The position numbers and the translations under genes were made by a program. A DNA stretch of 64,000 bases from Escherichia coli (lineage in GTDB: Bacteria > Pseudomonadota > Gammaproteobacteria > Enterobacterales > Enterobacteriaceae), in NCBI RefSeq assembly GCF_003991155.1, contig NZ_CP031293.1; one strand, 5' to 3'. Position 1 is the stretch's first letter. Every line of letters begins with the position of its first letter. The notes under the pieces are model-generated. The model was given only the letters and a program-made list of their open reading frames with translations. It ran no database searches and was not told the DNA's origin. Below are positions 16,060 through 30,899 of this stretch, piece after piece.

Positions 16060-16416
16060 GCCAGTGATAAAAGTGCATAAACGGCGGAGGCTAACTGAAA
16101 ATCAAGGAGTTATAACCACATCATATGCATTTAAAGTGCATATAAAGTGAATACGTTTGCGATGTGGGTGAATAAAAAGAATAAAAAACGCAATGTTATG
16201 CAGAAGTAAAATATAATTCTGGAATTGTGATCATTGACGAAATTTACTGGAAATTACTGCGCCATTCTGACGCAGCGCGCACCAAAAGCGGGCATTTTTT
16301 GCGCCATCGTTGACATCATTAACAACCATCGATCAAATCACTTAACAACAGGCGGTAAGCAAAGCGAAATTCTGCTACCATCCACGCACTCTTTATCTGA
16401 ATAAATGGCAGCGACT

Positions 16417-17223
16417 ATGAAATTTGTCTCTTTTAATATCAACGGCCTGCGCGCCAGACCTCACCAGCTTGAAGCCATCGTCGAAAAGCACCAGCCGGAT
16501 GTGATTGGCCTGCAGGAGACAAAAGTTCATGACGATATGTTTCCACTCGAAGAGGTGGCGAAGCTCGGCTACAACGTGTTTTATCACGGGCAGAAAGGCC
16601 ATTACGGCGTGGCATTGTTGACCAAAGAGACGCCGATTGCTGTGCGTCGCGGCTTCCCTGACGACGGCGAAGAGGCACAACGGCGAATTATTATGGCGGA
16701 AATCCCCTCGCCGCTGGGTAATGTCACCGTGATCAACGGTTACTTCCCACAGGGCGAAAGTCGCGACCATCCGATTAAATTCCCGGCGAAAGCGCAGTTT
16801 TATCAGAACCTGCAAAACTATCTCGAAACCGAACTTAAGCGTGAAAATCCGGTGCTGATTATGGGCGATATGAATATCAGTCCTGGCGACCTGGATATTG
16901 GCATTGGCGAAGAGAACCGTAAGCGCTGGCTGCGTACCGGAAAATGTTCTTTCCTTCCGGAGGAACGCGAATGGATGGAGAGACTGATGAGCTGGGGGTT
17001 GGTCGATACCTTCCGCCATGCGAATCCGCAAACAGCAGATCGTTTCTCATGGTTTGATTACCGCTCAAAAGGTTTTGACGATAACCGTGGTCTGCGCATC
17101 GACCTGCTGCTCGCCAGCCAACCGCTGGCAGAATGTTGCGTAGAAACCGGCATCGACTATGAAATCCGCAGCATGGAAAAACCGTCCGATCACGCGCCTG
17201 TGTGGGCGACCTTCCGCCGCTAA
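16417..17223 (+). CDS. xthA: exodeoxyribonuclease III (AP endonuclease)
   Basis: Start at internal Met ([13 protein letters not shown]...) giving 268 aa. Confidence 0.95.
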
Positions 17224-17389
17224 TTTAGCTGCTCTCCTGGCACAAACGGAGTCAGGAGAATTAACCTTGAGAAAAATCAACAAACTGTCAGTAATGATTT
17301 GTTGCCTGCCGTCCTTTGTTATACCGTCACAGCGTTTTTAGTTGTCTGACCACTTCTCTATTATCAAGTTTGATATAGGAAACTCCACG

Positions 17390-18100
17390 ATGAACGCTGA
17401 GCGTAAATTTCTTTTTGCCTGTCTTATTTTTGCGCTGGTCATTTACGCTATCCACGCTTTCGGTTTATTCGAGCTGCTCACCGATTTACCTCACTTACAG
17501 ACACTCATTCGCCAGAGCGGATTGTTCGGTTATAGCCTCTATATTCTGTTATTCATCATTGCCACCCTCTTTCTGTTGCCAGGAAGCATACTGGTGATCG
17601 CTGGAGGGATAGTTTTTGGCCCGCTCTTAGGGACACTACTATCATTAATTGCCGCCACGCTGGCCTCCTCGTGCTCATTCCTGCTGGCGCGCTGGCTGGG
17701 ACGTGATTTACTGCTGAAATACGTTGGTCATAGCCATACCTTTCAGTCCATTGAAAAAGGCATTGCGCGTAACGGTATTGATTTTCTTATTCTGACCCGC
17801 TTAATCCCGTTGTTTCCTTACAATATTCAAAATTACGCTTACGGATTAACCACAATCGCCTTCTGGCCTTATACCCTTATTTCGGCACTCACGACCCTGC
17901 CCGGTATTGTTATTTATACCGTGATGGCAAGCGATCTCGCCAATGAAGGCATTACGCTGCGCTTTATTTTACAACTCTGTCTGGCGGGCCTGGCGCTGTT
18001 TATTCTCGTCCAGCTCGCAAAACTCTACGCTCGACACAAACATGTGGATCTGTCTGCTTCTCGCCGCAGCCCACTTTCTCACCCAAAAAATGAAGGATAG
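17390..18100 (+). CDS. ydjX: DedA/TVP38-family inner membrane protein
   Basis: Start at MNAERKFLFACL..., 236 aa, multi-TM. Confidence 0.8.
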   Translation: MNAERKFLFACLIFALVIYAIHAFGLFELLTDLPHLQTLIRQSGLFGYSLYILLFIIATLFLLPGSILVIAGGIVFGPLLGTLLSLIAATLASSCSFLLARWLGRDLLLKYVGHSHTFQSIEKGIARNGIDFLILTRLIPLFPYNIQNYAYGLTTIAFWPYTLISALTTLPGIVIYTVMASDLANEGITLRFILQLCLAGLALFILVQLAKLYARHKHVDLSASRRSPLSHPKNEG

Positions 18101-18104
18101 AACA

Positions 18105-18782
18105 ATGTTGCAACATTATTCAGTGTCATGGAAAAAAGGACTGACTGCACTCTGCTTACTGGCTGTTGCTGGGCTTAGCGGCTGCGATCAAAAAGAGAAT
18201 GCGGCGGCAAAAGTGGAATACGACGAACTTTCGAACAGCCAACCGCTGCGTGTCGATGCTAATAACCATACGGTAACCATGCTGGTGCAAATTAATGGTC
18301 GTTTCCTCACCGACGACACTCGTCACGGTATTGTGTTTAAAGATGGCTCCAACGGACATAAATCGCTGTTTATGGGTTATGCGACCCCGAAAGCATTTTA
18401 TGAAGCCCTGAAAGAGGCAGGTGGTACGCCGGGCGAAAACATGACGATGGATAATAAAGAAACGACTCATGTCACAGGCAGCAAACTGGATATTTCGGTC
18501 AACTGGCAAGGGGCGGCAAAAGCGTATTCCTTCGATGAAGTGATTGTTGACAGTAATGGCAAGAAACTGGACATGCGCTTTGGCGGTAATTTAACGGCAG
18601 CAGAAGAGAAGAAAACGGGTTGCCTGGTGTGTCTGGATAGCTGCCCGGTCGGCATCGTCAGCAATGCAACATACACTTATGGTGCGGTGGAAAAACGCGG
18701 CGAAGTGAAATTCAAAGGCAATGCCTCAGTTCTCCCGGCGGATAACACGCTGGCAACGGTTACCTTTAAAATCACCGAATAA
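18105..18782 (+). CDS. ydjY: putative lipoprotein YdjY
   Basis: Start at MLQHYSVSWKK...; lipobox LSGC; C-terminal CLVCLDSCP cysteine cluster; 225 aa. Confidence 0.8.
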   Translation: MLQHYSVSWKKGLTALCLLAVAGLSGCDQKENAAAKVEYDELSNSQPLRVDANNHTVTMLVQINGRFLTDDTRHGIVFKDGSNGHKSLFMGYATPKAFYEALKEAGGTPGENMTMDNKETTHVTGSKLDISVNWQGAAKAYSFDEVIVDSNGKKLDMRFGGNLTAAEEKKTGCLVCLDSCPVGIVSNATYTYGAVEKRGEVKFKGNASVLPADNTLATVTFKITE

Positions 18783-18796
18783 AGCCAGGATAAAGG

Positions 18797-19504
18797 ATGA
18801 TGAAGATGCAATCGCGAAAAATCTGGTACTACCGTATAACCCTCATCATCCTGTTGTTCGCTATGCTGCTGGCATGGGCGCTGCTTCCCGGCGTCCATGA
18901 GTTTATCAATCGCAGCGTTGCGGCGTTTGCCGCCGTGGACCAACAGGGTATAGAACGCTTTATTCAGTCTTACGGCGCACTGGCGGCAGTTGTCTCGTTC
19001 TTGTTGATGATTTTACAGGCCATTGCTGCACCGCTACCTGCGTTTTTGATCACCTTTGCCAATGCGTCGCTGTTTGGCGCGTTCTGGGGGGGATTGCTGT
19101 CGTGGACCAGTTCGATGGCCGGCGCGGCGCTGTGCTTTTTTATCGCCAGAGTGATGGGCCGCGAAGTGGTGGAAAAATTAACCGGCAAAACCGTACTTGA
19201 CAGTATGGACGGCTTTTTCACTCGCTACGGCAAACACACCATCCTGGTATGTCGGTTATTGCCTTTTGTGCCTTTTGATCCCGTAAGCTATGCTGCCGGT
19301 TTGACTTCAATACGTTTTCGCTCGTTTTTTATCGCCACCGGGCTTGGTCAGTTACCGGCGACTATTGTTTATTCTTGGGCGGGCAGCATGTTAACAGGCG
19401 GTACCTTCTGGTTTGTCACCGGACTGTTTATTCTGTTTGCCCTGACCGTGGTGATTTTTATGGCGAAGAAAATATGGCTTGAGCGCCAGAAGAGGAATGC
19501 CTGA
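18797..19504 (+). CDS. ydjZ: DedA/TVP38-family inner membrane protein
   Basis: 235-aa multi-TM ORF, paralogous to ydjX. Confidence 0.8.
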   Translation: MMKMQSRKIWYYRITLIILLFAMLLAWALLPGVHEFINRSVAAFAAVDQQGIERFIQSYGALAAVVSFLLMILQAIAAPLPAFLITFANASLFGAFWGGLLSWTSSMAGAALCFFIARVMGREVVEKLTGKTVLDSMDGFFTRYGKHTILVCRLLPFVPFDPVSYAAGLTSIRFRSFFIATGLGQLPATIVYSWAGSMLTGGTFWFVTGLFILFALTVVIFMAKKIWLERQKRNA

Positions 19505-20052
19505 TGGGTTTACCGCCGCTTAGCAAAATTCCTTTCATTTTACGTCCGCAGGCGTGGCTGCATCGTCGCCATTACGGCGAGGTGCTAAGCCCGATTCGCT
19601 GGTGGGGGCGGATCCCGTTTATCTTTTATCTGGTGTCGATGTTTGTCGGCTGGCTGGAGCGCAAACGCTCACCGCTCGATCCGGTAGTGCGATCGCTTGT
19701 CAGCGCGCGCATTGCGCAAATGTGCCTGTGTGAGTTTTGCGTGGATATCACCAGTATGAAAGTCGCCGAGCGTACCGGCAGCACCGATAAACTGCTGGCA
19801 GTGGCTGACTGGCGGCAAAGCCCGCTCTTTAGCGATGAAGAACGGCTGGCGCTGGAGTACGCCGAAGCCGCAAGCGTCACACCGCCAACGGTCGATGATG
19901 CCCTGCGTACCCGACTGGCTACCCATTTTGACGCTCAGGCACTCACCGAACTGACGGCATTGATCGGCCTGCAAAACCTGTCAGCCCGTTTTAATTCTGC
20001 CATGGACATTCCCGCTCAGGGGCTGTGCCGTATTCCTGACAAACGTTCTTAA
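19504..20052 (+). CDS. ynjA: carboxymuconolactone decarboxylase (AhpD-like) family protein
   Basis: 182-aa ORF; ATGA overlap with ydjZ stop. Confidence 0.8.
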   Translation: MGLPPLSKIPFILRPQAWLHRRHYGEVLSPIRWWGRIPFIFYLVSMFVGWLERKRSPLDPVVRSLVSARIAQMCLCEFCVDITSMKVAERTGSTDKLLAVADWRQSPLFSDEERLALEYAEAASVTPPTVDDALRTRLATHFDAQALTELTALIGLQNLSARFNSAMDIPAQGLCRIPDKRS

Positions 20053-20061
20053 GGAGAGATG

Positions 20062-21228
20062 ATGCGCCATTGTGTATGGTTGCTGGGATTGTTATCGCTG
20101 TTTTCTTTGGCAACACATGCCAGTGACTGGCAGGAAATTAAAAATGAGGCCAAAGGGCAAACCGTCTGGTTTAACGCCTGGGGCGGCGATACCGCAATTA
20201 ACCGCTATCTCGACTGGGTTAGCGGCGAGATGAAAACCCATTACGCTATAAACCTGAAGATTGTTCGTCTCGCGGATGCCGCAGACGCGGTGAAGCGCAT
20301 TCAGACCGAAGCTGCTGCCGGGCGCAAAACAGGCGGTTCGGTGGATCTGCTCTGGGTGAACGGCGAAAACTTCCGCACCTTAAAAGAGGCTAATTTACTG
20401 CAAACTGACTGGGCGGAGACCCTGCCCAACTGGCGCTATGTCGACACACAGCTGCCGGTGCGGGAAGATTTTTCAGTGCCTACAGAAGGGGCAGAATCAC
20501 CCTGGGGCGGCGCGCAATTGACGTTTATCGCCCGCCGCGATGTTACGCCACAGCCACCACAAACGCCGCAAGCCTTACTGGAGTTTGCTAAAGCCAATCC
20601 CGGCACGGTTACCTATCCGCGCCCACCGGACTTTACCGGCACGGCGTTTCTTGAACAGTTGCTGATTATGCTGACGCCCGATCCCGCAGCATTAAAAGAA
20701 GCGCCGGACGATGCAACTTTCGCCCGTGTCACTGCTCCCTTGTGGCAATATCTTGATGCGCTACATCCGTATTTGTGGCGCGAAGGAAAGGATTTCCCGC
20801 CTTCGCCCGCGCGGATGGATGCTCTGCTGAAAGCCGGCACATTGCGCCTGTCGCTGACCTTTAACCCCGCGCATGCGCAGCAAAAAATCGCCAGCGGCGA
20901 TTTACCCGCCAGCAGTTACAGTTTTGGCTTTCGCGAGGGGATGATTGGCAACGTGCATTTCGTCACCATTCCTGCCAACGCGAATGCCAGTGCTGCGGCG
21001 AAGGTAGTTGCCAATTTCCTGCTCTCACCCGATGCGCAACTGCGTAAAGCAGATCCCACTGTCTGGGGCGATCCTTCTGTTCTCGATCCGCAAAAACTGC
21101 CTGACGGGCAGCGCGAAACATTGCAATCGAGAATGCCGCAGGATCTGCCGCCGGTACTGGCTGAACCGCACGCAGGTTGGGTAAATGCGCTGGAACAAGA
21201 ATGGCTACACCGTTACGGTACGCATTAA
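20062..21228 (+). CDS. ynjB: ABC transporter periplasmic substrate-binding protein
   Basis: Signal peptide then soluble domain; start at second Met giving 388 aa. Confidence 0.8.
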   Translation: MRHCVWLLGLLSLFSLATHASDWQEIKNEAKGQTVWFNAWGGDTAINRYLDWVSGEMKTHYAINLKIVRLADAADAVKRIQTEAAAGRKTGGSVDLLWVNGENFRTLKEANLLQTDWAETLPNWRYVDTQLPVREDFSVPTEGAESPWGGAQLTFIARRDVTPQPPQTPQALLEFAKANPGTVTYPRPPDFTGTAFLEQLLIMLTPDPAALKEAPDDATFARVTAPLWQYLDALHPYLWREGKDFPPSPARMDALLKAGTLRLSLTFNPAHAQQKIASGDLPASSYSFGFREGMIGNVHFVTIPANANASAAAKVVANFLLSPDAQLRKADPTVWGDPSVLDPQKLPDGQRETLQSRMPQDLPPVLAEPHAGWVNALEQEWLHRYGTH

Positions 21229-22736
21229 TCTTTTTGCTGTGGGCGATGGTGGCGGTGATTTATGCACCGCTGATCCCGGCAACTCTCACGCTGATATCGC
21301 CTGCTTTATCGTTGACACACTGGCAGGCGTTATTTGCCGATCCACAGTTACCGCAGGCATTACTGGCAACGCTGGTGTCGACAACCATCGCGGCGGTCGG
21401 GGCGTTGTTGATTGCCCTGCTGGTGATTGTGGCGCTGTGGCCTGGGCCGAAATGGCAGCGTATGTGCGCCCGTCTGCCGTGGCTGCTCGCCATTCCCCAT
21501 GTGGCTTTTGCCACCAGCACCCTTCTGCTCTTTGCTGACGGAGGGCTGCTTTATGACTATTTCCCATATTTCACTCCGCCAATGGACAAATTGGGTATTG
21601 GGCTGGGCTTCACGCTGGCGGTGAAAGAAAGCGCATTTCTATTGTGGATCTTAGCGGCAGTATTGAGCGAAAAACGGCTGTTGCAGCAACTCATTGTGCT
21701 GGATTCGCTGGGCTACAGCCGCTGGCAATGCCTGAACTGGCTGCTGTTGCCCTCCGTCGCGCCTGCGCTGGCAATGGCGATGCTGGCGATTGTGGCCTGG
21801 TCGCTGTCGGTCGTGGATGTGGCGATTATTCTTGGGCCAGGTAATCCCCCGACGCTGGCAGTAATTAGCTGGCAGTGGTTAACTCAGGGCGACGCCGATC
21901 AACAAACGAAAGGCGCACTCGCCAGCCTGCTGCTGATGCTGTTACTCGCCGCCTACGTTTTGCTGGACTATCTGCTATGGCGTGGCTGGCGGCGTACTAT
22001 TCCCCGCGTAGATGGCGTTCGTAAGCCTGCCACGCCTTTATTGCCAGGCAATACGCTGGCGAGTTTTTTACCCTTAACCGGTGTGCTGTGTGTGGTTCTG
22101 CTGGCGATCCTCGCGGATCAGTCGACGATCAATAGTGAAGCGCTCATCAACAGCCTGACAATGGGGCCGGTGGCGACATTCATCGCTTTGCTCCTGTTAC
22201 TGCTGTGGCTGGAATGGGGGCCACAGCGTCGCCAATTGTGGCTATGGTTGCCTATTTTATTACCCGCTCTGCCGCTGGTGGCGGGCCAGTACACGCTGGC
22301 GCTATGGCTGAACCTGGATGGAAGCTGGACGGCGGTGGTCTGGGGGCATCTGCTGTGGGTAATGCCGTGGATGCTGTTTATCCTGCAACCCGCCTGGCAG
22401 CGCATTGATTCACGGTTAATTTTGATTGCGCAAACACTGGGCTGGTCGCGGGCCAAAATCTTCTTTTACGTAAAATGCCCACTCATGTTGCGCCCTGCGT
22501 TGATTGCCTTCGCGGTGGGATTTTCAGTCAGTATTGCGCAGTATATGCCGACGCTGTGGCTGGGCGCGGGGCGTTTTCCGACGCTCACCACTGAAGCGGT
22601 GGCATTAAGCAGCGGCGGCAGCAACGGCATTCTCGCCGCCCAGGCTTTATGGCAACTACTGTTGCCGCTTATTATTTTTGCCCTGACCGCGTTAGTCGCA
22701 AAATGGGTAGGTTATGTCAGACAAGGACTCCGCTAA
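21201..22736 (+). CDS. ynjC: ABC transporter permease (duplicated transmembrane domains)
   Basis: Very hydrophobic 511-aa product; start at MATPLRYALIFLL overlapping ynjB 3' end. Confidence 0.75.
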   Translation: MATPLRYALIFLLWAMVAVIYAPLIPATLTLISPALSLTHWQALFADPQLPQALLATLVSTTIAAVGALLIALLVIVALWPGPKWQRMCARLPWLLAIPHVAFATSTLLLFADGGLLYDYFPYFTPPMDKLGIGLGFTLAVKESAFLLWILAAVLSEKRLLQQLIVLDSLGYSRWQCLNWLLLPSVAPALAMAMLAIVAWSLSVVDVAIILGPGNPPTLAVISWQWLTQGDADQQTKGALASLLLMLLLAAYVLLDYLLWRGWRRTIPRVDGVRKPATPLLPGNTLASFLPLTGVLCVVLLAILADQSTINSEALINSLTMGPVATFIALLLLLLWLEWGPQRRQLWLWLPILLPALPLVAGQYTLALWLNLDGSWTAVVWGHLLWVMPWMLFILQPAWQRIDSRLILIAQTLGWSRAKIFFYVKCPLMLRPALIAFAVGFSVSIAQYMPTLWLGAGRFPTLTTEAVALSSGGSNGILAAQALWQLLLPLIIFALTALVAKWVGYVRQGLR

Positions 22737-23389
22737 TGCTCTGCGTGAAAAATGTTTCGCTACGTTTACCAGAAAGCCGCTTGCTGACAAACGTTAACTT
22801 TACGGTGGATAAAGGTGACATTGTCACGTTAATGGGGCCGTCTGGCTGTGGAAAATCTACACTGTTTTCATGGATGATTGGTGCGCTGGCCGGACAGTTT
22901 TCTTGTACAGGTGAGCTATGGCTCAATGAGCAACGGATTGACATGCTACCCACCGCACAGCGTCAGATTGGCATTCTTTTCCAGGATGCACTGTTATTTG
23001 ACCAATTCAGCGTCGGGCAAAATTTACTGCTGGCTCTGCCAGCGGCACTCAAAGGTGTTGCAAGGCGCGATGCGGTAAATGATGCGCTGGAGCGTGCGGG
23101 GCTTGGCGGTATGTTCCATCAGGATCCTGCCACTTTGTCTGGCGGTCAGCGAGCGCGCGTTGCTCTAGTACGCGCCCTTCTCGCTCAGCCAAAAGCGTTG
23201 CTACTGGATGAGCCATTCAGCCGTCTTGATGTAGCTCTGCGCGATAATTTTCGCCAGTGGGTGTTCAGCGAAGTTCGCGCCCAGGCGATCCCAGTCGTTC
23301 AGGTAACGCACGATCTCCAGGATGTTCCTGCTGATAGCCCCGTTCTGGATATGGCGCAGTGGTCAGAAAATTACAACAAACTGCGATAA
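22736..23389 (+). CDS. ynjD: ABC transporter ATP-binding protein
   Basis: Walker A GPSGCGKST, signature LSGGQRARV, Walker B LLLDEPF; start at MLCVKNVSLRL (217 aa), 1-nt overlap with ynjC stop. Confidence 0.85.
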   Translation: MLCVKNVSLRLPESRLLTNVNFTVDKGDIVTLMGPSGCGKSTLFSWMIGALAGQFSCTGELWLNEQRIDMLPTAQRQIGILFQDALLFDQFSVGQNLLLALPAALKGVARRDAVNDALERAGLGGMFHQDPATLSGGQRARVALVRALLAQPKALLLDEPFSRLDVALRDNFRQWVFSEVRAQAIPVVQVTHDLQDVPADSPVLDMAQWSENYNKLR

Positions 23390-23455
23390 CGCAAAGTTTT
23401 TCTCAATGCGTCAGTTCAGAATGGCGCTCTCAAAAATACAATGTCGGGATTTTCG

Positions 23456-24763
23456 ATGAAACGTGTTTCTCAAATGACCGCGCTGGCAATGGCTTTAGGG
23501 CTGGCTTGCGCTTCTTCGTGGGCCGCTGAACTGGCGAAGCCTCTTACACTTGACCAGCTTCAACAACAAAATGGCAAAGCGATTGATACTCGCCCCAGCG
23601 CGTTTTATAACGGCTGGCCACAAACCTTAAATGGCCCTTCCGGTCATGAACCTGCCGCCTTAAACCTCTCTGCTAGCTGGCTCGACAAAATGAGCACCGA
23701 ACAGCTCAACGAGTGGATCAAGCAACATAACCTGAAAGCCGATGCCCCGGTGGCGCTGTACGGTAATGACAAAGATGTCGATGCCGTCAAAACGCGTCTG
23801 CAAAAAGCAGGTTTTACGCATATCTCCATCCTGAGTGACGCGCTAAGCGAACCTTCCCGTCTGCAAAAACTGCCGCACTTTGAGCAGCTGGTTTATCCGC
23901 AATGGCTGCATGACCTGCAACAAGGTAAAGAGGTTACGGCGAAACCTGCCGGTGACTGGAAAGTCATTGAAGCGGCCTGGGGCGCTCCTAAGCTTTACCT
24001 TATCAGCCATATTCCCGGCGCTGACTACATCGACACCAACGAAGTGGAAAGCGAACCGCTGTGGAACAAAGTTTCTGATGAACAACTGAAAGCGATGCTG
24101 GCAAAACACGGCATTCGCCATGACACCACGGTCATTCTGTACGGGCGTGACGTATACGCTGCAGCGCGTGTGGCGCAAATTATGCTTTATGCCGGCGTGA
24201 AAGATGTGCGCCTGCTGGACGGAGGCTGGCAAACCTGGTCCGACGCGGGTCTGCCCGTTGAGCGCGGTACGCCACCGAAAGTGAAAGCGGAACCGGATTT
24301 CGGCGTGAAGATCCCGGCACAACCGCAACTGATGCTTGATATGGAACAAGCGCGTGGACTGCTGCATCGCCAGGATGCATCGCTGGTGAGTATTCGTTCG
24401 TGGCCGGAGTTTATCGGTACGACCAGTGGTTACAGCTATATTAAACCAAAAGGTGAAATAGCCGGAGCACGTTGGGGACACGCTGGTAGCGACTCGACGC
24501 ATATGGAAGATTTCCATAACCCGGATGGCACCATGCGTAGCGCCGATGATATTACCGCTATGTGGAAAGCATGGAATATCAAGCCAGATCAGCAAGTTTC
24601 ATTCTACTGCGGCACCGGCTGGCGCGCGTCCGAAACCTTTATGTACGCACGCGCAATGGGCTGGAATAACGTCTCCGTTTACGACGGCGGCTGGTACGAA
24701 TGGAGCAGCGATCCAAAAAATCCGGTAGCAACCGGTGAACGCGGCCCGGACAGCAGCAAATAA
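23456..24763 (+). CDS. ynjE: thiosulfate sulfurtransferase (multi-rhodanese-domain, periplasmic)
   Basis: Start at MKRVSQMTALAMALG (signal peptide), 435 aa. Confidence 0.85.
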   Translation: MKRVSQMTALAMALGLACASSWAAELAKPLTLDQLQQQNGKAIDTRPSAFYNGWPQTLNGPSGHEPAALNLSASWLDKMSTEQLNEWIKQHNLKADAPVALYGNDKDVDAVKTRLQKAGFTHISILSDALSEPSRLQKLPHFEQLVYPQWLHDLQQGKEVTAKPAGDWKVIEAAWGAPKLYLISHIPGADYIDTNEVESEPLWNKVSDEQLKAMLAKHGIRHDTTVILYGRDVYAAARVAQIMLYAGVKDVRLLDGGWQTWSDAGLPVERGTPPKVKAEPDFGVKIPAQPQLMLDMEQARGLLHRQDASLVSIRSWPEFIGTTSGYSYIKPKGEIAGARWGHAGSDSTHMEDFHNPDGTMRSADDITAMWKAWNIKPDQQVSFYCGTGWRASETFMYARAMGWNNVSVYDGGWYEWSSDPKNPVATGERGPDSSK

Positions 24764-24771
24764 CATTGCAA

Positions 24772-25398
24772 TTACTGACGCTGGAGCGACTTCAGCGTCA
24801 GATACCCACTCCACACCCGCGTAAAGGTCGTCATCCAGCACAACGCACCAAATACCCACGCAAACCACGGAAAACAGGCCGGAAAGAGGCAACTCAGAAC
24901 AAACAGCAAAATCGTCTCGCTGCCTTCGGTTAACCCGCCCAGATAATAAAACGATTTATGCGCATAACCAGGATTATCAATCTGATGTTTCGCCGCCAGC
25001 GCAGCAAAAGCGAGAAAACTGCTGCCCGTGCCGATAAACGCAAACAGCAGCCAGCCGCCTGCCAGCGCATTTTGCTCCGGTGCAGCAAGAATAAAACCAA
25101 ACGGCACCAGCGCGTAAAAGAGAAAATCGAGAGAAATATCGAGAAAGCCGCCCGCGTCGGTAAGCCCTCTGCGCCGCGCCAGCGCACCGTCCAGACCATC
25201 AAGCAGCCTGTTCAACAAAATGGCGACTAGCGCCGCCAGATACCAGCCCAGCGCCAGAAAAGGCAGTGCCAGCACGCCGATGGCAAATCCCACTAATGTT
25301 AAACCATCTGGCGTAATGCCCGGTTTATCAAGAACCCGCACGCACTGATGCAACAACGGTTTAATCCGGGGATGAAGATGGCGGTCTAGCACAGGCAC
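24772..25398 (-). CDS. ynjF: CDP-alcohol phosphatidyltransferase family membrane protein
   Basis: DG-x2-AR-x8-G-x3-D-x3-D-like motif (LDGLDGALARRRGLTDAGG); exact start uncertain (ATG 25398 or GTG 25392). Confidence 0.8.
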   Translation of the reverse strand: MPVLDRHLHPRIKPLLHQCVRVLDKPGITPDGLTLVGFAIGVLALPFLALGWYLAALVAILLNRLLDGLDGALARRRGLTDAGGFLDISLDFLFYALVPFGFILAAPEQNALAGGWLLFAFIGTGSSFLAFAALAAKHQIDNPGYAHKSFYYLGGLTEGSETILLFVLSCLFPACFPWFAWVFGALCWMTTFTRVWSGYLTLKSLQRQ

Positions 25399-25478: not shown

Positions 25479-25886
25479 ATGAAAATGATTGAAGTTGTTG
25501 CCGCCATCATCGAACGTGATGGCAAAATTTTACTCGCGCAACGCCCCGCCCATAGCGATCAGGCGGGATTATGGGAGTTTGCCGGTGGTAAAGTCGAGCC
25601 GGATGAAAACCAGCGGCAGGCGCTGGTGCGTGAGTTACGCGAAGAACTGGGCATCGAAGCAGCTGTGGGTGAATATGTTGCCAGCCATCAGCGAGAAGTT
25701 TCGGGGCGGATTATCCATCTTCATGCCTGGCACGTACCCGACTTCCACGGGACGTTACAGGCACATGAACATCAGGCGCTGGTCTGGTGCTCACCTGAAG
25801 AGGCGCTGCAATATCCGCTGGCCCCTGCTGACATTCCACTATTAGAGGCATTTATGGCTTTACGCGCCGCCAGACCAGCGGATTAG
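25479..25886 (+). CDS. nudG: Nudix CTP/dCTP pyrophosphohydrolase
   Basis: 135-aa ORF with Nudix box GGKVEPDENQRQALVRELREELGI. Confidence 0.9.
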   Translation: MKMIEVVAAIIERDGKILLAQRPAHSDQAGLWEFAGGKVEPDENQRQALVRELREELGIEAAVGEYVASHQREVSGRIIHLHAWHVPDFHGTLQAHEHQALVWCSPEEALQYPLAPADIPLLEAFMALRAARPAD

Positions 25887-29739: not shown

Positions 29740-30783
29740 TTAACGGATCTCAACCATGGCACGACCGCCGCGCGCTGGCACCAGTTCGCCAATCGCCGTC
29801 AGTTCAATGCCAAACTCGGCGGCTGTAGCTTTGACCTCATTTTCTGCTTCCGGCATGACCGCCAGCAGCAAACCGCCAGAAGTTTGCGGATCGCACAGCA
29901 GATCGCGCACTTCACGCGGCATTTCACCCATCAGATGACCGTAGCTGGCAAAGTTACGTTCGGTGCCGCCAGGCACTGCGCCCAACTTAATGTACTCTTC
30001 AACCCCAGGCAATTTCGGGATCGCGTCATAGTCGACGCGCGCCTGCACACCTGCGCCCTGACACATTTCGCTTAAATGCCCCAGCAAACCAAAACCCGTA
30101 ACGTCGGTCATCGCTTTTACGCCTTCGATGTTGGCAAAGGACGCGCCTGCGATGTTCATCCGGCACATCACTTCCGTCGCCAGTCCCTGATGTTCTGGTT
30201 TAAGCAGTGATTTTTTCTCAGCCGTGGTAAGAACGCCAATCCCCAGCGGCTTCGTCAGGAACAGTTTGCATCCGGCTTGTGCGGTACTGTTTTTCTTCAC
30301 CCGCTCGGTCGGTACGATCCCCGTTACCGCCAGACCAAAAATCGGCTCCGGCGCATCGATGGAGTGACCGCCAGCCAGCGCAATACCCGCCTGACGGCAT
30401 GCATAGCGTCCACCTTCGGTCACTTCGCGGGCAATTTCCGGGGAAAGTTTGTTAATCGGCCAGCCGAGGATCGCAATCGCCATAATTGGTTTGCCGCCCA
30501 TTGCGAAGATATCGCTGATGGCGTTAGTCGCCGCAATGCGGCCAAAATCGAAAGGATTATCAACGATCGGCATAAAGAAGTCGGTGGTACTGATAACGCT
30601 GGTGCCATTGCCCAGATCGTATACCGCCGCATCGTCGCGGGTTTCATTACCCACAAGCAAATTCGGATCAACAAACTTCGCCTGCTCACTGTGCAGGATG
30701 GTTTCCAACACTTTTGGGGAAATTTTACAGCCGCAACCAGCGCCGTGGCTGTATTGGGTCAAACGAATCGAGTTCTCGCTCAT
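29740..30783 (-). CDS. selD: selenide, water dikinase (selenophosphate synthetase)
   Basis: Start at [21 protein letters not shown]..., 347 aa; 4-bp gap to topB start. Confidence 0.95.
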
Positions 30784-30899
30784 GGACATCTCCTGTCAAT
30801 GCAATCCGGGTATGGTAACCCTCATTCCATGAAGTGATAAGTGAGAGTGTCTGAATTCCTGCTCCTTTGCTCACAATCCAGACAGTTTCGCGACAATTA

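Follow-up and report, generated by a model that had tools for sequence, protein, structure and literature searches.

The anaerobically induced ydjX-ynjE cluster of Escherichia coli: a DedA, lipoprotein and rhodanese system that may move selenium or sulfane sulfur across the inner membrane

Organization of the ydjX-ynjE cluster

The 64,000 bp stretch of the Escherichia coli chromosome analysed here (the window; contig NZ_CP031293.1, assembly GCF_003991155.1) contains a cluster of eight same-strand genes, ydjX, ydjY, ydjZ, ynjA, ynjB, ynjC, ynjD and ynjE, encoding two DedA (VTT) membrane proteins, a cysteine-rich lipoprotein, a CMD/AhpD-like protein, an ATP-binding cassette (ABC) importer and an exported rhodanese (Table 1). 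Parts of the cluster recur together in distant anaerobes, often beside selD, yedF, selB and selA, and this makes it a testable candidate for selenium (or sulfur) uptake.

All eight open reading frames (ORFs) are intact at 17390–24763, and their number, strand and positions, given in an earlier reading made without database searches (the sequence-only reading), agree with the RefSeq annotation and with an ORF check. Domain matches likewise bear out the gene content listed there, namely two DedA proteins, a CxxCxxxCP lipoprotein, a CMD protein, an importer and a rhodanese. From ydjX to ynjE the intergenic gaps are +4, +14, −1, +9, −28, −1 and +66 nt, tight or overlapping junctions by which translation is coupled through the operon. 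The 28 nt ynjB/ynjC overlap and the 1 nt ynjC/ynjD overlap (TAATG) are as previously read, but ydjZ and ynjA meet at TGATG (1 nt overlap) and not at ATGA. A further gene, ynjF, encoded on the minus strand just beyond the interval considered in that reading, was missed there. The distance to selD, put at 5 kb, measures 4,977 nt from the end of ynjE. The region 17000–25500 matches 5424 of 5426 complete E. coli genomes, with at least 80% of the stretch present in 5383, and the ydjX-ynjE block is part of the core E. coli chromosome.

Table 1. Genes and regulatory sites of the ydjX-ynjE region, in window coordinates.
Feature	Coordinates	Strand	Description
FNR box TTGAGAAAAATCAA upstream of ydjX	17267–17280		9/10 specified consensus positions match
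ydjX	17390–18100	+	DedA/VTT membrane protein; less conserved paralogue
ydjY	18105–18782	+	Inner-membrane lipoprotein; invariant C173, C176, C180, R73-H74
ydjZ	18797–19504	+	DedA/VTT membrane protein; highly conserved paralogue; C113 and C152
ynjA	19504–20052	+	CMD/AhpD-like protein
ynjB	20062–21228	+	Periplasmic binding protein of ABC importer
ynjC	21201–22736	+	Fused double-length permease, 511 aa
ynjD	22736–23389	+	ABC ATPase
Promoter-like site for ynjE (TTCAGA-16-TACAAT)	23415–23442	+	Consensus scan
ynjE	23456–24763	+	Exported three-domain rhodanese, EanB-like
ynjF	24772–25392	−	CDP-alcohol phosphatidyltransferase; convergent with ynjE
selD	29740–30789	−	Selenophosphate synthetase; NF002098 618.8 bits; context gene, possible functional neighbour

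A rare lipoprotein and its DedA partners

YdjY has a lipobox (LSGC, with Asp at +2) and a C173-xx-C176-xxx-C180-P motif whose three cysteines, together with an Arg-His pair, are invariant in the family. The family is rare: a scan of genome contigs finds it in 127 of ~100,000 species genomes, and a set of 1.84 billion protein representatives has 392 clusters of it. Its members are 50–60% identical across E. coli, Bacillota, Desulfobacterota and Campylobacterota. Four cluster representatives combine YdjY with one rhodanese domain, both orders occurring; each has a lipobox or signal peptide, and in each the Cys loop of the rhodanese and the Cys motif of YdjY are preserved. One more representative joins a YdjZ-like VTT domain to YdjY. 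Catonella, Campylobacter and a Peptostreptococcaceae genome also have, next to YdjY, genes for exported multi-domain rhodaneses of the YnjE type, and because of these neighbours and the rhodanese fusions YdjY is tied to YnjE at the outer face of the membrane.

Some sources name YdjY a 4Fe-4S ferredoxin, an identity that is rejected here: the protein has three invariant cysteines in CxxCxxxCP only, as against the four-ligand CxxCxxCxxxCP, there is no Fer4 Pfam match, PDB matches reach only E 0.29–0.33, and the export signal is of the Sec lipoprotein type without a twin-arginine.

The neighbourhoods of YdjY were compared in 80 loci from ~43 lineages, with all ORFs clustered de novo. A YdjX/YdjZ-type VTT protein is encoded beside YdjY in 76 of the 80 loci (142 copies in total). 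Both E. coli proteins belong to the VTT/DedA family (PF09335; YdjX 92.6 bits, YdjZ 87.1 bits, cut-off 33.9) and are 27% identical to each other; the YdjZ-like and YdjX-like paralogues are anciently distinct. YdjZ is the better conserved, with more than 70 positions at least 90% conserved across 61 YdjY-associated homologues, including C113 (97%) and C152 (90%), and its Bacillota orthologues reach E 2e-84. YdjX-like genes, present in 37 of the 80 loci, are far less conserved. Both YdjZ cysteines are also kept in the enteric clusters that have no YdjY (Kluyvera, Citrobacter freundii and a contig labelled Salmonella). A role as the undecaprenyl-phosphate flippase UptA is rejected for YdjX and YdjZ, which score 27 and 35.2 bits against an equivalog cut-off of 250. 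YdjZ falls in the COG0398 branch of DedA proteins, whose members are reported to be without the residues for undecaprenyl phosphate binding and to resemble eukaryotic phospholipid scramblases; their commonest fusion partner is a pyridine-nucleotide disulfide oxidoreductase.

Two core parts of the system are not found in E. coli. One is a ~130 aa protein with four transmembrane segments (4TM), encoded just after YdjY or fused N-terminally to a YdjZ-like protein. The other, an HdrD-like protein with two 4Fe-4S and two CCG motifs, occurs in 17 lineages, where its gene adjoins a VTT gene or is fused to one (the VTT fusion is in Desulfobacterota); its best NCBIfam relative is 'diclust_near_Sec'. 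The unit is minimal in Gemella and Finegoldia, where only YdjY and a 4TM-YdjZ protein lie amid housekeeping genes; neighbours of the Gemella type (ArgRS, L19, an Spx/ArsC-like protein and an FtsX ABC transporter) were disregarded as housekeeping.

Rhodanese, CMD protein, importer and phosphatidyltransferase

YnjE combines a signal peptide with three rhodanese stretches, and the PDB entries that it matches, 3ipo and 2wlr, are of YnjE itself. Its alignment with EanB (E 1e-88), an anaerobic ergothioneine synthase and rhodanese-like C-S bond-forming enzyme, extends along the whole protein; the FYCGTGWRxSE loop with the catalytic Cys is identical in the two proteins and the Tyr of the EanB SGYNYIK motif (SGYxYIK) is conserved. 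Unlike cytoplasmic EanB, which is linked to the histidine methyltransferase EanA, YnjE carries a signal peptide and has a reported location in the periplasm, and no methyltransferase is annotated from astA to topB. Published assays of YnjE gave little or no activity with thiosulfate or 3-mercaptopyruvate, and its physiological substrate was called unclear. Deletion of ynjE barely changed cellular sulfane sulfur. The protein is annotated as a molybdopterin-synthase sulfurtransferase, and a role in molybdenum cofactor (Moco) synthesis has been proposed.

YnjA is an AhpD/CMD protein (PF02627, 36.7 bits, cut-off 23) with a C-L-C-E-F-C (CxCxFC) motif conserved in the Citrobacter and Kluyvera orthologues. 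Its best NCBIfam match, below cut-off, is 'YciW-related (seleno)protein'.

A secreted solute-binding protein (SBP), a permease and an ATPase are encoded together by ynjBCD, as in type I ABC importers. YnjB has a signal peptide and matches PF13416 (SBP_bac_8; 56.6 bits) and NF008633 (562.8 bits), and YnjD matches PF00005 (105.3 bits) but falls below the cut-off of every named equivalog. The C-terminal half of YnjC scores 25.9 bits for PF00528 (BPD_transp_1), just under the cut-off of 26.4, and the N-terminal half is PhnU2-like; in Bacillota two half-size permease genes stand in place of ynjC. YnjB orthologues (E 1e-56 to 1e-76) occur with half-size permease pairs and an ATPase in 10 YdjY lineages. 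Identities as a thiamine, 2-aminoethylphosphonate, polyamine or sulfate importer are not supported by the equivalog scores (ThiQ 133.6 against a cut-off of 245, PhnT2 141 against 457.7, PotA 125 against 482, CysA 106.6 against 502), and the 'putative thiamine transport' labels that some sources give YnjB fail with them. A sequence search of the PDB with YnjB gave no match at E≤0.01. The structural model (pLDDT 88.7) has PotD, PhnS, FbpA, AfuA and TbpA as nearest folds (TM-score ~0.6, 12–18% identity), binders of polyamine, phosphonate, iron, sugar-phosphate and thiamine, and since it matches this whole group equally no ligand is called. Many of the invariant residues of YnjB are aromatic or acidic. 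The suggestion in the sequence-only reading that the importer brings in a redox-active solute is not sustained, as many YdjY-DedA loci are without an importer and the YnjB ligand cannot be inferred.

YnjF is a member of the CDP-alcohol phosphatidyltransferase family (PF01066, 42.4 bits, cut-off 22) with the DxxDGxxAR...GxxxDxxxD motif (translation LLDGLDGALARRRGLTDAGGFLDISLD); it scores below the cut-off of every named synthase (e.g. AIP synthase, 60.8 against 180). A ynjF-like gene lies immediately upstream of ynjBCD-like genes, on the same strand, in five Bacillota or metagenome-assembled genome (MAG) loci (L034, L046, L060, L072 and L093). Kluyvera, Citrobacter freundii and a contig labelled Salmonella (L090–L092) have VTT-VTT-ynjBCD-ynjE clusters without ydjY at the same site as in E. 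coli (astCADBE-xthA ... nudG-gdhA-topB), with ynjA overlapping ynjF as a minus-strand two-gene unit. The order of the cluster genes has thus been rearranged within the Enterobacteriaceae. Its place upstream of the importer genes in Bacillota, and its pairing with ynjA in Citrobacter and Kluyvera, make ynjF a member of the system; and because the L090–L092 clusters retain the VTT pair with ynjBCD and ynjE but not ydjY, the DedA pair is its hub.

Selenium genes and accessory modules in YdjY neighbourhoods

Selenium genes (selD, yedF, Se_S_carrier, selB, selA) were counted within 10 kb of YdjY, using NCBIfam equivalogs above cut-off. At least one is present in nine lineages: SelD in five, YedF in six and SelB in two, along with SelA, an Aminotran_5 protein and Se_S_carrier (PF11823). 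Recurrent linkage of the kind used to recognize a predicted selenium-trafficking gene set is thus seen in nine lineages, with the E. coli selD 5 kb from its cluster. A rough binomial estimate gives P = 2e-7 by lineage, and 1.5e-3 to 2e-2 when the lineages are collapsed to three independent events.

The most extensive arrangement is in Facklamia languida, where a same-strand array encodes, in order, a TIGR04282-APH protein, TIGR04283, a PrdB-like fragment, DsbD_TM, Redoxin, YdjZ, YdjX, IU-nucleosidase, 4TM, YdjY, a rhodanese, a 169 aa protein, SelD, YedF', SelB and SelA. In Desulfobacterota a YedF-Aminotran_5-Se_S_carrier-SelD group adjoins CCG-VTT, YdjY and 4TM genes. One operon of a MAG (L093) contains VTT, Rhd-YdjY, 4TM, VTT, YedF (189 bits, cut-off 110) and Se_S_carrier genes, and is convergent with genes for CCG, YnjF, a YnjB-subfamily SBP (430 bits against 203), two permeases and an ATPase. 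The same gene families thus co-occur in Bacillota, Desulfobacterota, Campylobacterota and a MAG, with differing gene orders. No YedE-like gene was identified next to YedF in the YedF-bearing loci, in a partial check, which hints at substitution of YedE. A 2022 review lists no high-affinity selenium transport system as known in bacteria, and the main comparative genomic study of selenium use (Lin 2015) is silent on neighbours of the DedA, ABC or rhodanese families.

In 8–9 YdjY lineages, NCBIfam cut-offs are exceeded by ArsS, TIGR04283 and TIGR04282, the last often as a fusion with an APH-type kinase; IU-nucleosidase, a flippase-like LPG_synthase_TM protein and C_GCAxxG_C_C proteins frequently accompany them. 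Outside the enterics, no other accessory module is as common beside YdjY-VTT as such ArsS/TIGR clusters, and the module and YnjF are mutually exclusive across YdjY loci. It is absent from E. coli and comes without a recurrent ArsM. In Facklamia it sits within the sel-gene array, so its product there may not be an arsenical. We found no gene-neighbourhood information in the published accounts of ArsS that were consulted.

Three other gene groups occur near YdjY. An ORF of ~155 aa resembling PrdB/GrdB (L077:4879–5346, Facklamia) ends at the selenocysteine position of the family and is followed by a 485 nt 'gap'; similar ORFs of that length are present in L073, L079, L082, L086 and L087. These are probably unannotated selenoprotein genes read through a UGA codon. 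Directly upstream of YdjY in Finegoldia, Peptoniphilaceae and a Bacillota MAG (L021–L023 and L037) is a corrinoid methyltransferase set with three URO-D/MtaA-like genes, a B12-binding protein, a RACo activator, CobW and DUF4430 proteins, which could act in the (de)methylation of a thiol, selenol or metalloid compound. BcrAD_BadFG ATPase and HGD-D dehydratase-like genes lie a few kb from YdjY in a JGI metagenome (L095) and in Syntrophus (L081). In E. coli the same pair is yjiL/yjiM, part of an expression module that also contains the cluster (see below); two lineages are too few to use.

Anaerobic regulation and promoters

The ydjXYZ-ynjABCD genes were reported as a directly FNR-activated operon with a site at −60.5 (Myers 2013), and ynjE as an FNR-activated unit of its own, on the basis of chromatin immunoprecipitation (ChIP) and RNA-seq. 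The single operon of eight genes proposed in the sequence-only reading is consequently upheld for the first seven but not for ynjE. The FNR box upstream of ydjX is kept in Citrobacter and Kluyvera with 8–9/10 matches. No FNR palindrome matching at 7/10 or better was found upstream of ynjE, so the published ChIP and RNA-seq results are what supports its separate control by FNR. Shortly before the promoter-like site of ynjE, at 23381–23394, a palindrome TGCGATAACGCA overlaps the stop codon of ynjD, and at the equivalent place in Citrobacter and Kluyvera it is the perfect TGCGTTAACGCA. A regulator may bind there, or the palindrome may form a small hairpin.

When E. coli transcriptomes were resolved by independent-component analysis, ydjXYZ-ynjABCD, ynjE, yedEF and yjiLM fell into one uncharacterised anaerobic module (iModulon), for which the authors of that study suggest a link to molybdenum and selenium use and mention molybdoenzymes. 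Overproduction of BaeR induces ynjABCD mildly.

A candidate route for selenium or sulfane sulfur

Taken together, these features tentatively favour, at a little under even chances, a cysteine-based relay, induced under anaerobic conditions, by which selenium or sulfane sulfur would cross the inner membrane on its way to SelD. YnjE and YdjY (through C173, C176 and C180) would bind the chalcogen outside as a perselenide, persulfide or selenotrisulfide. The YdjZ/YdjX pair would carry it through the membrane, YdjZ by way of C113 and C152, and a cytoplasmic thiol/disulfide enzyme (YnjA in enterics, the HdrD-like Fe-S/CCG protein elsewhere) would free it. YedF, Se_S_carrier and SelD could then receive it for selenophosphate synthesis. 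Selenium is the likeliest chalcogen, with sulfane sulfur chemically equivalent; selenium is favoured because of the SelD/SelA/SelB linkage and the co-expression with yedEF. The suggestion of the sequence-only reading that the cluster handles a sulfur- or selenium-containing solute is supported by the selenium genes in nine lineages, the YdjY-rhodanese fusions and the shared iModulon with yedEF. The narrower proposal, that YdjY, YdjZ/YdjX and YnjE, with YnjA or the HdrD-like partner, form a specific bacterial selenium uptake and delivery route, is more doubtful.

Several known systems resemble parts of this relay. In the mercury relay MerP-MerT-MerA, an extracytoplasmic Cys protein passes a thiophilic element to a membrane protein with paired cysteines, which passes it on to a cytoplasmic enzyme of the disulfide-oxidoreductase type; enzymes of that type are frequent fusion partners of the DedA subfamily, and in the present loci HdrD-like CCG domains are. 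YedE/YedF and YeeE/YeeD (TsuA/TsuB) combine a conserved-Cys membrane protein with a TusA-like cytoplasmic acceptor, and YedF itself is encoded in the YdjY-VTT operon of L093 and close to YdjY in Desulfobacterota and Facklamia, with yedEF co-expressed with the E. coli cluster. Unlike in those systems, the membrane proteins YdjX and YdjZ are not homologous to YedE/YeeE, and an external lipoprotein and an exported rhodanese are added. The VTT/DedA domain is shared with flippases and scramblases (UptA, TMEM41B, VMP1), the COG0398 branch being closest to the eukaryotic scramblases, but the two near-invariant cysteines of YdjZ and its redox partners have no counterpart in characterised DedA proteins. 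YnjE has a close homologue in EanB, from which it differs in location and in having no EanA-type gene in its cluster.

A number of observations weigh against the relay. About 34 of the 43 YdjY lineages have no selenium gene within 10 kb, the Citrobacter and Kluyvera clusters run without YdjY, and in E. coli the unrelated genes nudG, ynjH, gdhA and topB separate the cluster from selD. No Cys-to-Sec (in-frame TGA) variants of YdjY or YdjZ were found in the 80 loci with search patterns that are Cys-biased. To our knowledge, no ydj or ynj gene ever came out of the classical screens for formate-dehydrogenase-deficient (sel) mutants. The assignment to selenium is inferred from association for all of the cluster genes, and sulfur fits every chemical argument equally, YedF and the YedE family also handling thiosulfate-type sulfur. 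The relay has no need of an ABC importer or YnjF, yet the linkage of both to the cluster is tight. Relatives in the DedA family scramble or flip lipids and do not carry ions or atoms, and the ynjC P213S allele, which confers a strong fitness gain under colistin, points to the envelope.

The locus itself was already known, with its operon, regulation, YnjE structure (solved 2009), Moco proposal and Mo/Se suggestion in print; the earlier description of its function as unassigned holds for the mechanism. New here are the rarity of YdjY, the YdjY-DedA pairing, the rhodanese fusions, the YdjZ cysteines and HdrD-like partner, the link to ynjF and the selenium-gene neighbourhoods. In the literature searched, the functional picture is not described beyond one sentence of the iModulon paper.

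For the acquisition of selenium by bacteria at nanomolar levels, the candidates so far (YedE/YedF) come from comparative genomics alone. The cluster is present in nearly every E. coli strain and is FNR-induced when the selenoprotein formate dehydrogenases are made; single-gene knockouts exist in E. coli, and the selenium hypothesis is therefore directly testable. If true, it would give functions to seven or eight y-genes, account for the exported rhodanese YnjE, and provide a substrate and first defined job for the COG0398 DedA branch, the one closest to human TMEM41B and VMP1. If selenium is not the cargo, a widely transferred and strongly conserved redox and lipid module is still to be explained.

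Competing explanations

The linkage of YnjBCD and YnjF, the scramblase ancestry of the DedA proteins and the colistin phenotype keep a lipid-centred explanation alive, although it is an unlikely one. YnjBCD would import a polar, probably cationic, head-group precursor, YnjF would attach it to CDP-diacylglycerol or another lipid, the DedA pair would flip the product, and YdjY and YnjE would act outside. The catalytic motif of YnjF marks it as a bona fide CDP-alcohol phosphatidyltransferase, and its gene is placed directly upstream of importer genes in five loci and with ynjA in Citrobacter. The aromatic and acidic invariant residues of YnjB are in keeping with such a substrate, as is the lowered uptake of a cationic dye on ynjC deletion. 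Where YnjF is replaced, its substitutes (TIGR04282-APH with kinase and nucleotidyltransferase parts, the family 2 glycosyltransferase TIGR04283, IU-nucleosidase, ArsS and LPG_synthase_TM) resemble a sugar-lipid pathway. However, the minimal YdjY and 4TM-VTT units of Gemella, Finegoldia and Sulfurospirillum have no lipid-synthesis genes nearby, and plain scrambling leaves the YdjZ cysteines, the YdjY Cys triad and the rhodanese and CCG fusions unexplained. The most unified version would make the lipid itself a carrier that shuttles sulfur or selenium across the membrane, and here the pathway meets the boldest form of the chalcogen relay: YnjBCD and YnjF (or the ArsS/TIGR04282/TIGR04283 module) may build a lipid-linked carrier that the DedA scramblases shuttle. 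The rhodanese and YdjY may load this carrier with selenium on the outer side, and it may be unloaded on the inner side for use by SelD.

Somewhat less probable still is a system for sulfur as such, in which sulfane sulfur (polysulfide or thiosulfate) is taken up or relayed under anaerobiosis for the synthesis of Moco, Fe-S or thio-cofactors, YnjE being the sulfurtransferase at the point of entry. It accords with the FNR activation of YnjE and its annotation as a molybdopterin-synthase sulfurtransferase, with the molybdoenzymes mentioned by the iModulon authors, and with the close homology to EanB, which sulfurises a heterocycle with polysulfide; rhodanese, CMD, CCG, TusA and DsrE are all sulfur-trafficking families. 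The adjacency to SelD, SelB and SelA is nevertheless selenium-specific. The poor activity of YnjE with thiosulfate and 3-mercaptopyruvate, its substrate being called unclear, and the near-constant sulfane sulfur of the ynjE deletion also speak against this role, as does the export of YnjE, Moco synthesis being cytoplasmic.

That the genes are a loose neighbourhood, with an importer for a mundane cationic nutrient (thiamine, polyamine or 2-aminoethylphosphonate, as annotations have it) merely placed under a common FNR promoter, is very improbable. YnjB belongs to a family much wider than that of YdjY (4223 hits, as against 392 clusters), and PotD, PhnS and TbpA are among its structural neighbours, in line with the thiamine label noted above. 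Against this, the families recur together in differing orders across Bacillota, Desulfobacterota, Campylobacterota and a MAG, the ThiQ, PhnT2 and PotA scores are far under their cut-offs, and the E. coli genes are translationally coupled.

A site of three cysteines, such as that of YdjY, is typical of As(III) binding. An arsenic or metalloid system that handles As(III) or tellurite, or makes arsenosugar lipids, has the least to commend it: ArsS, TIGR04282 and TIGR04283 ('arsenosugar biosynthesis') do lie beside YdjY in 8–9 lineages, but the module is missing from most loci as well as from E. coli, no ArsM, ArsR or ArsB/Acr3 gene recurs among the neighbours in the 80 loci (the sole ArsC-family match is the Spx-like housekeeping neighbour in Gemella), the Facklamia module is inside a sel-gene array, and ArsS is itself described as a selenoprotein family.

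Other features of the locus

Two E. coli-derived proteins in public assemblies join neighbouring products of the cluster: P0242 is a 451 aa YdjX-YdjY fusion, and P0122 (574 aa, CMD and SBP_bac_8) would be a YnjA-YnjB fusion. Frameshifts or gene-calling errors at the tight junctions most likely account for both. Antisense ORFs of 250 aa within ynjE (23843–24595, minus strand) and 212 aa within xthA (16393–17031, minus strand), neither of which is in RefSeq, are presumably spurious.

The G+C content steps from ~0.48 in ydjX-ydjY to 0.55–0.58 in ynjA-ynjC (window 17000–22500), which is compatible with a separate origin of the ydjX/ydjY end of the operon. At the other end, the convergent ynjE and ynjF have 8 nt between their stop codons (24763–24772), and the 3′ ends of nudG and ynjH overlap by ~35 nt (25852–25886); both pairs are among the transcriptional-overlap 'excludons' of a 2025 RNA-seq survey.

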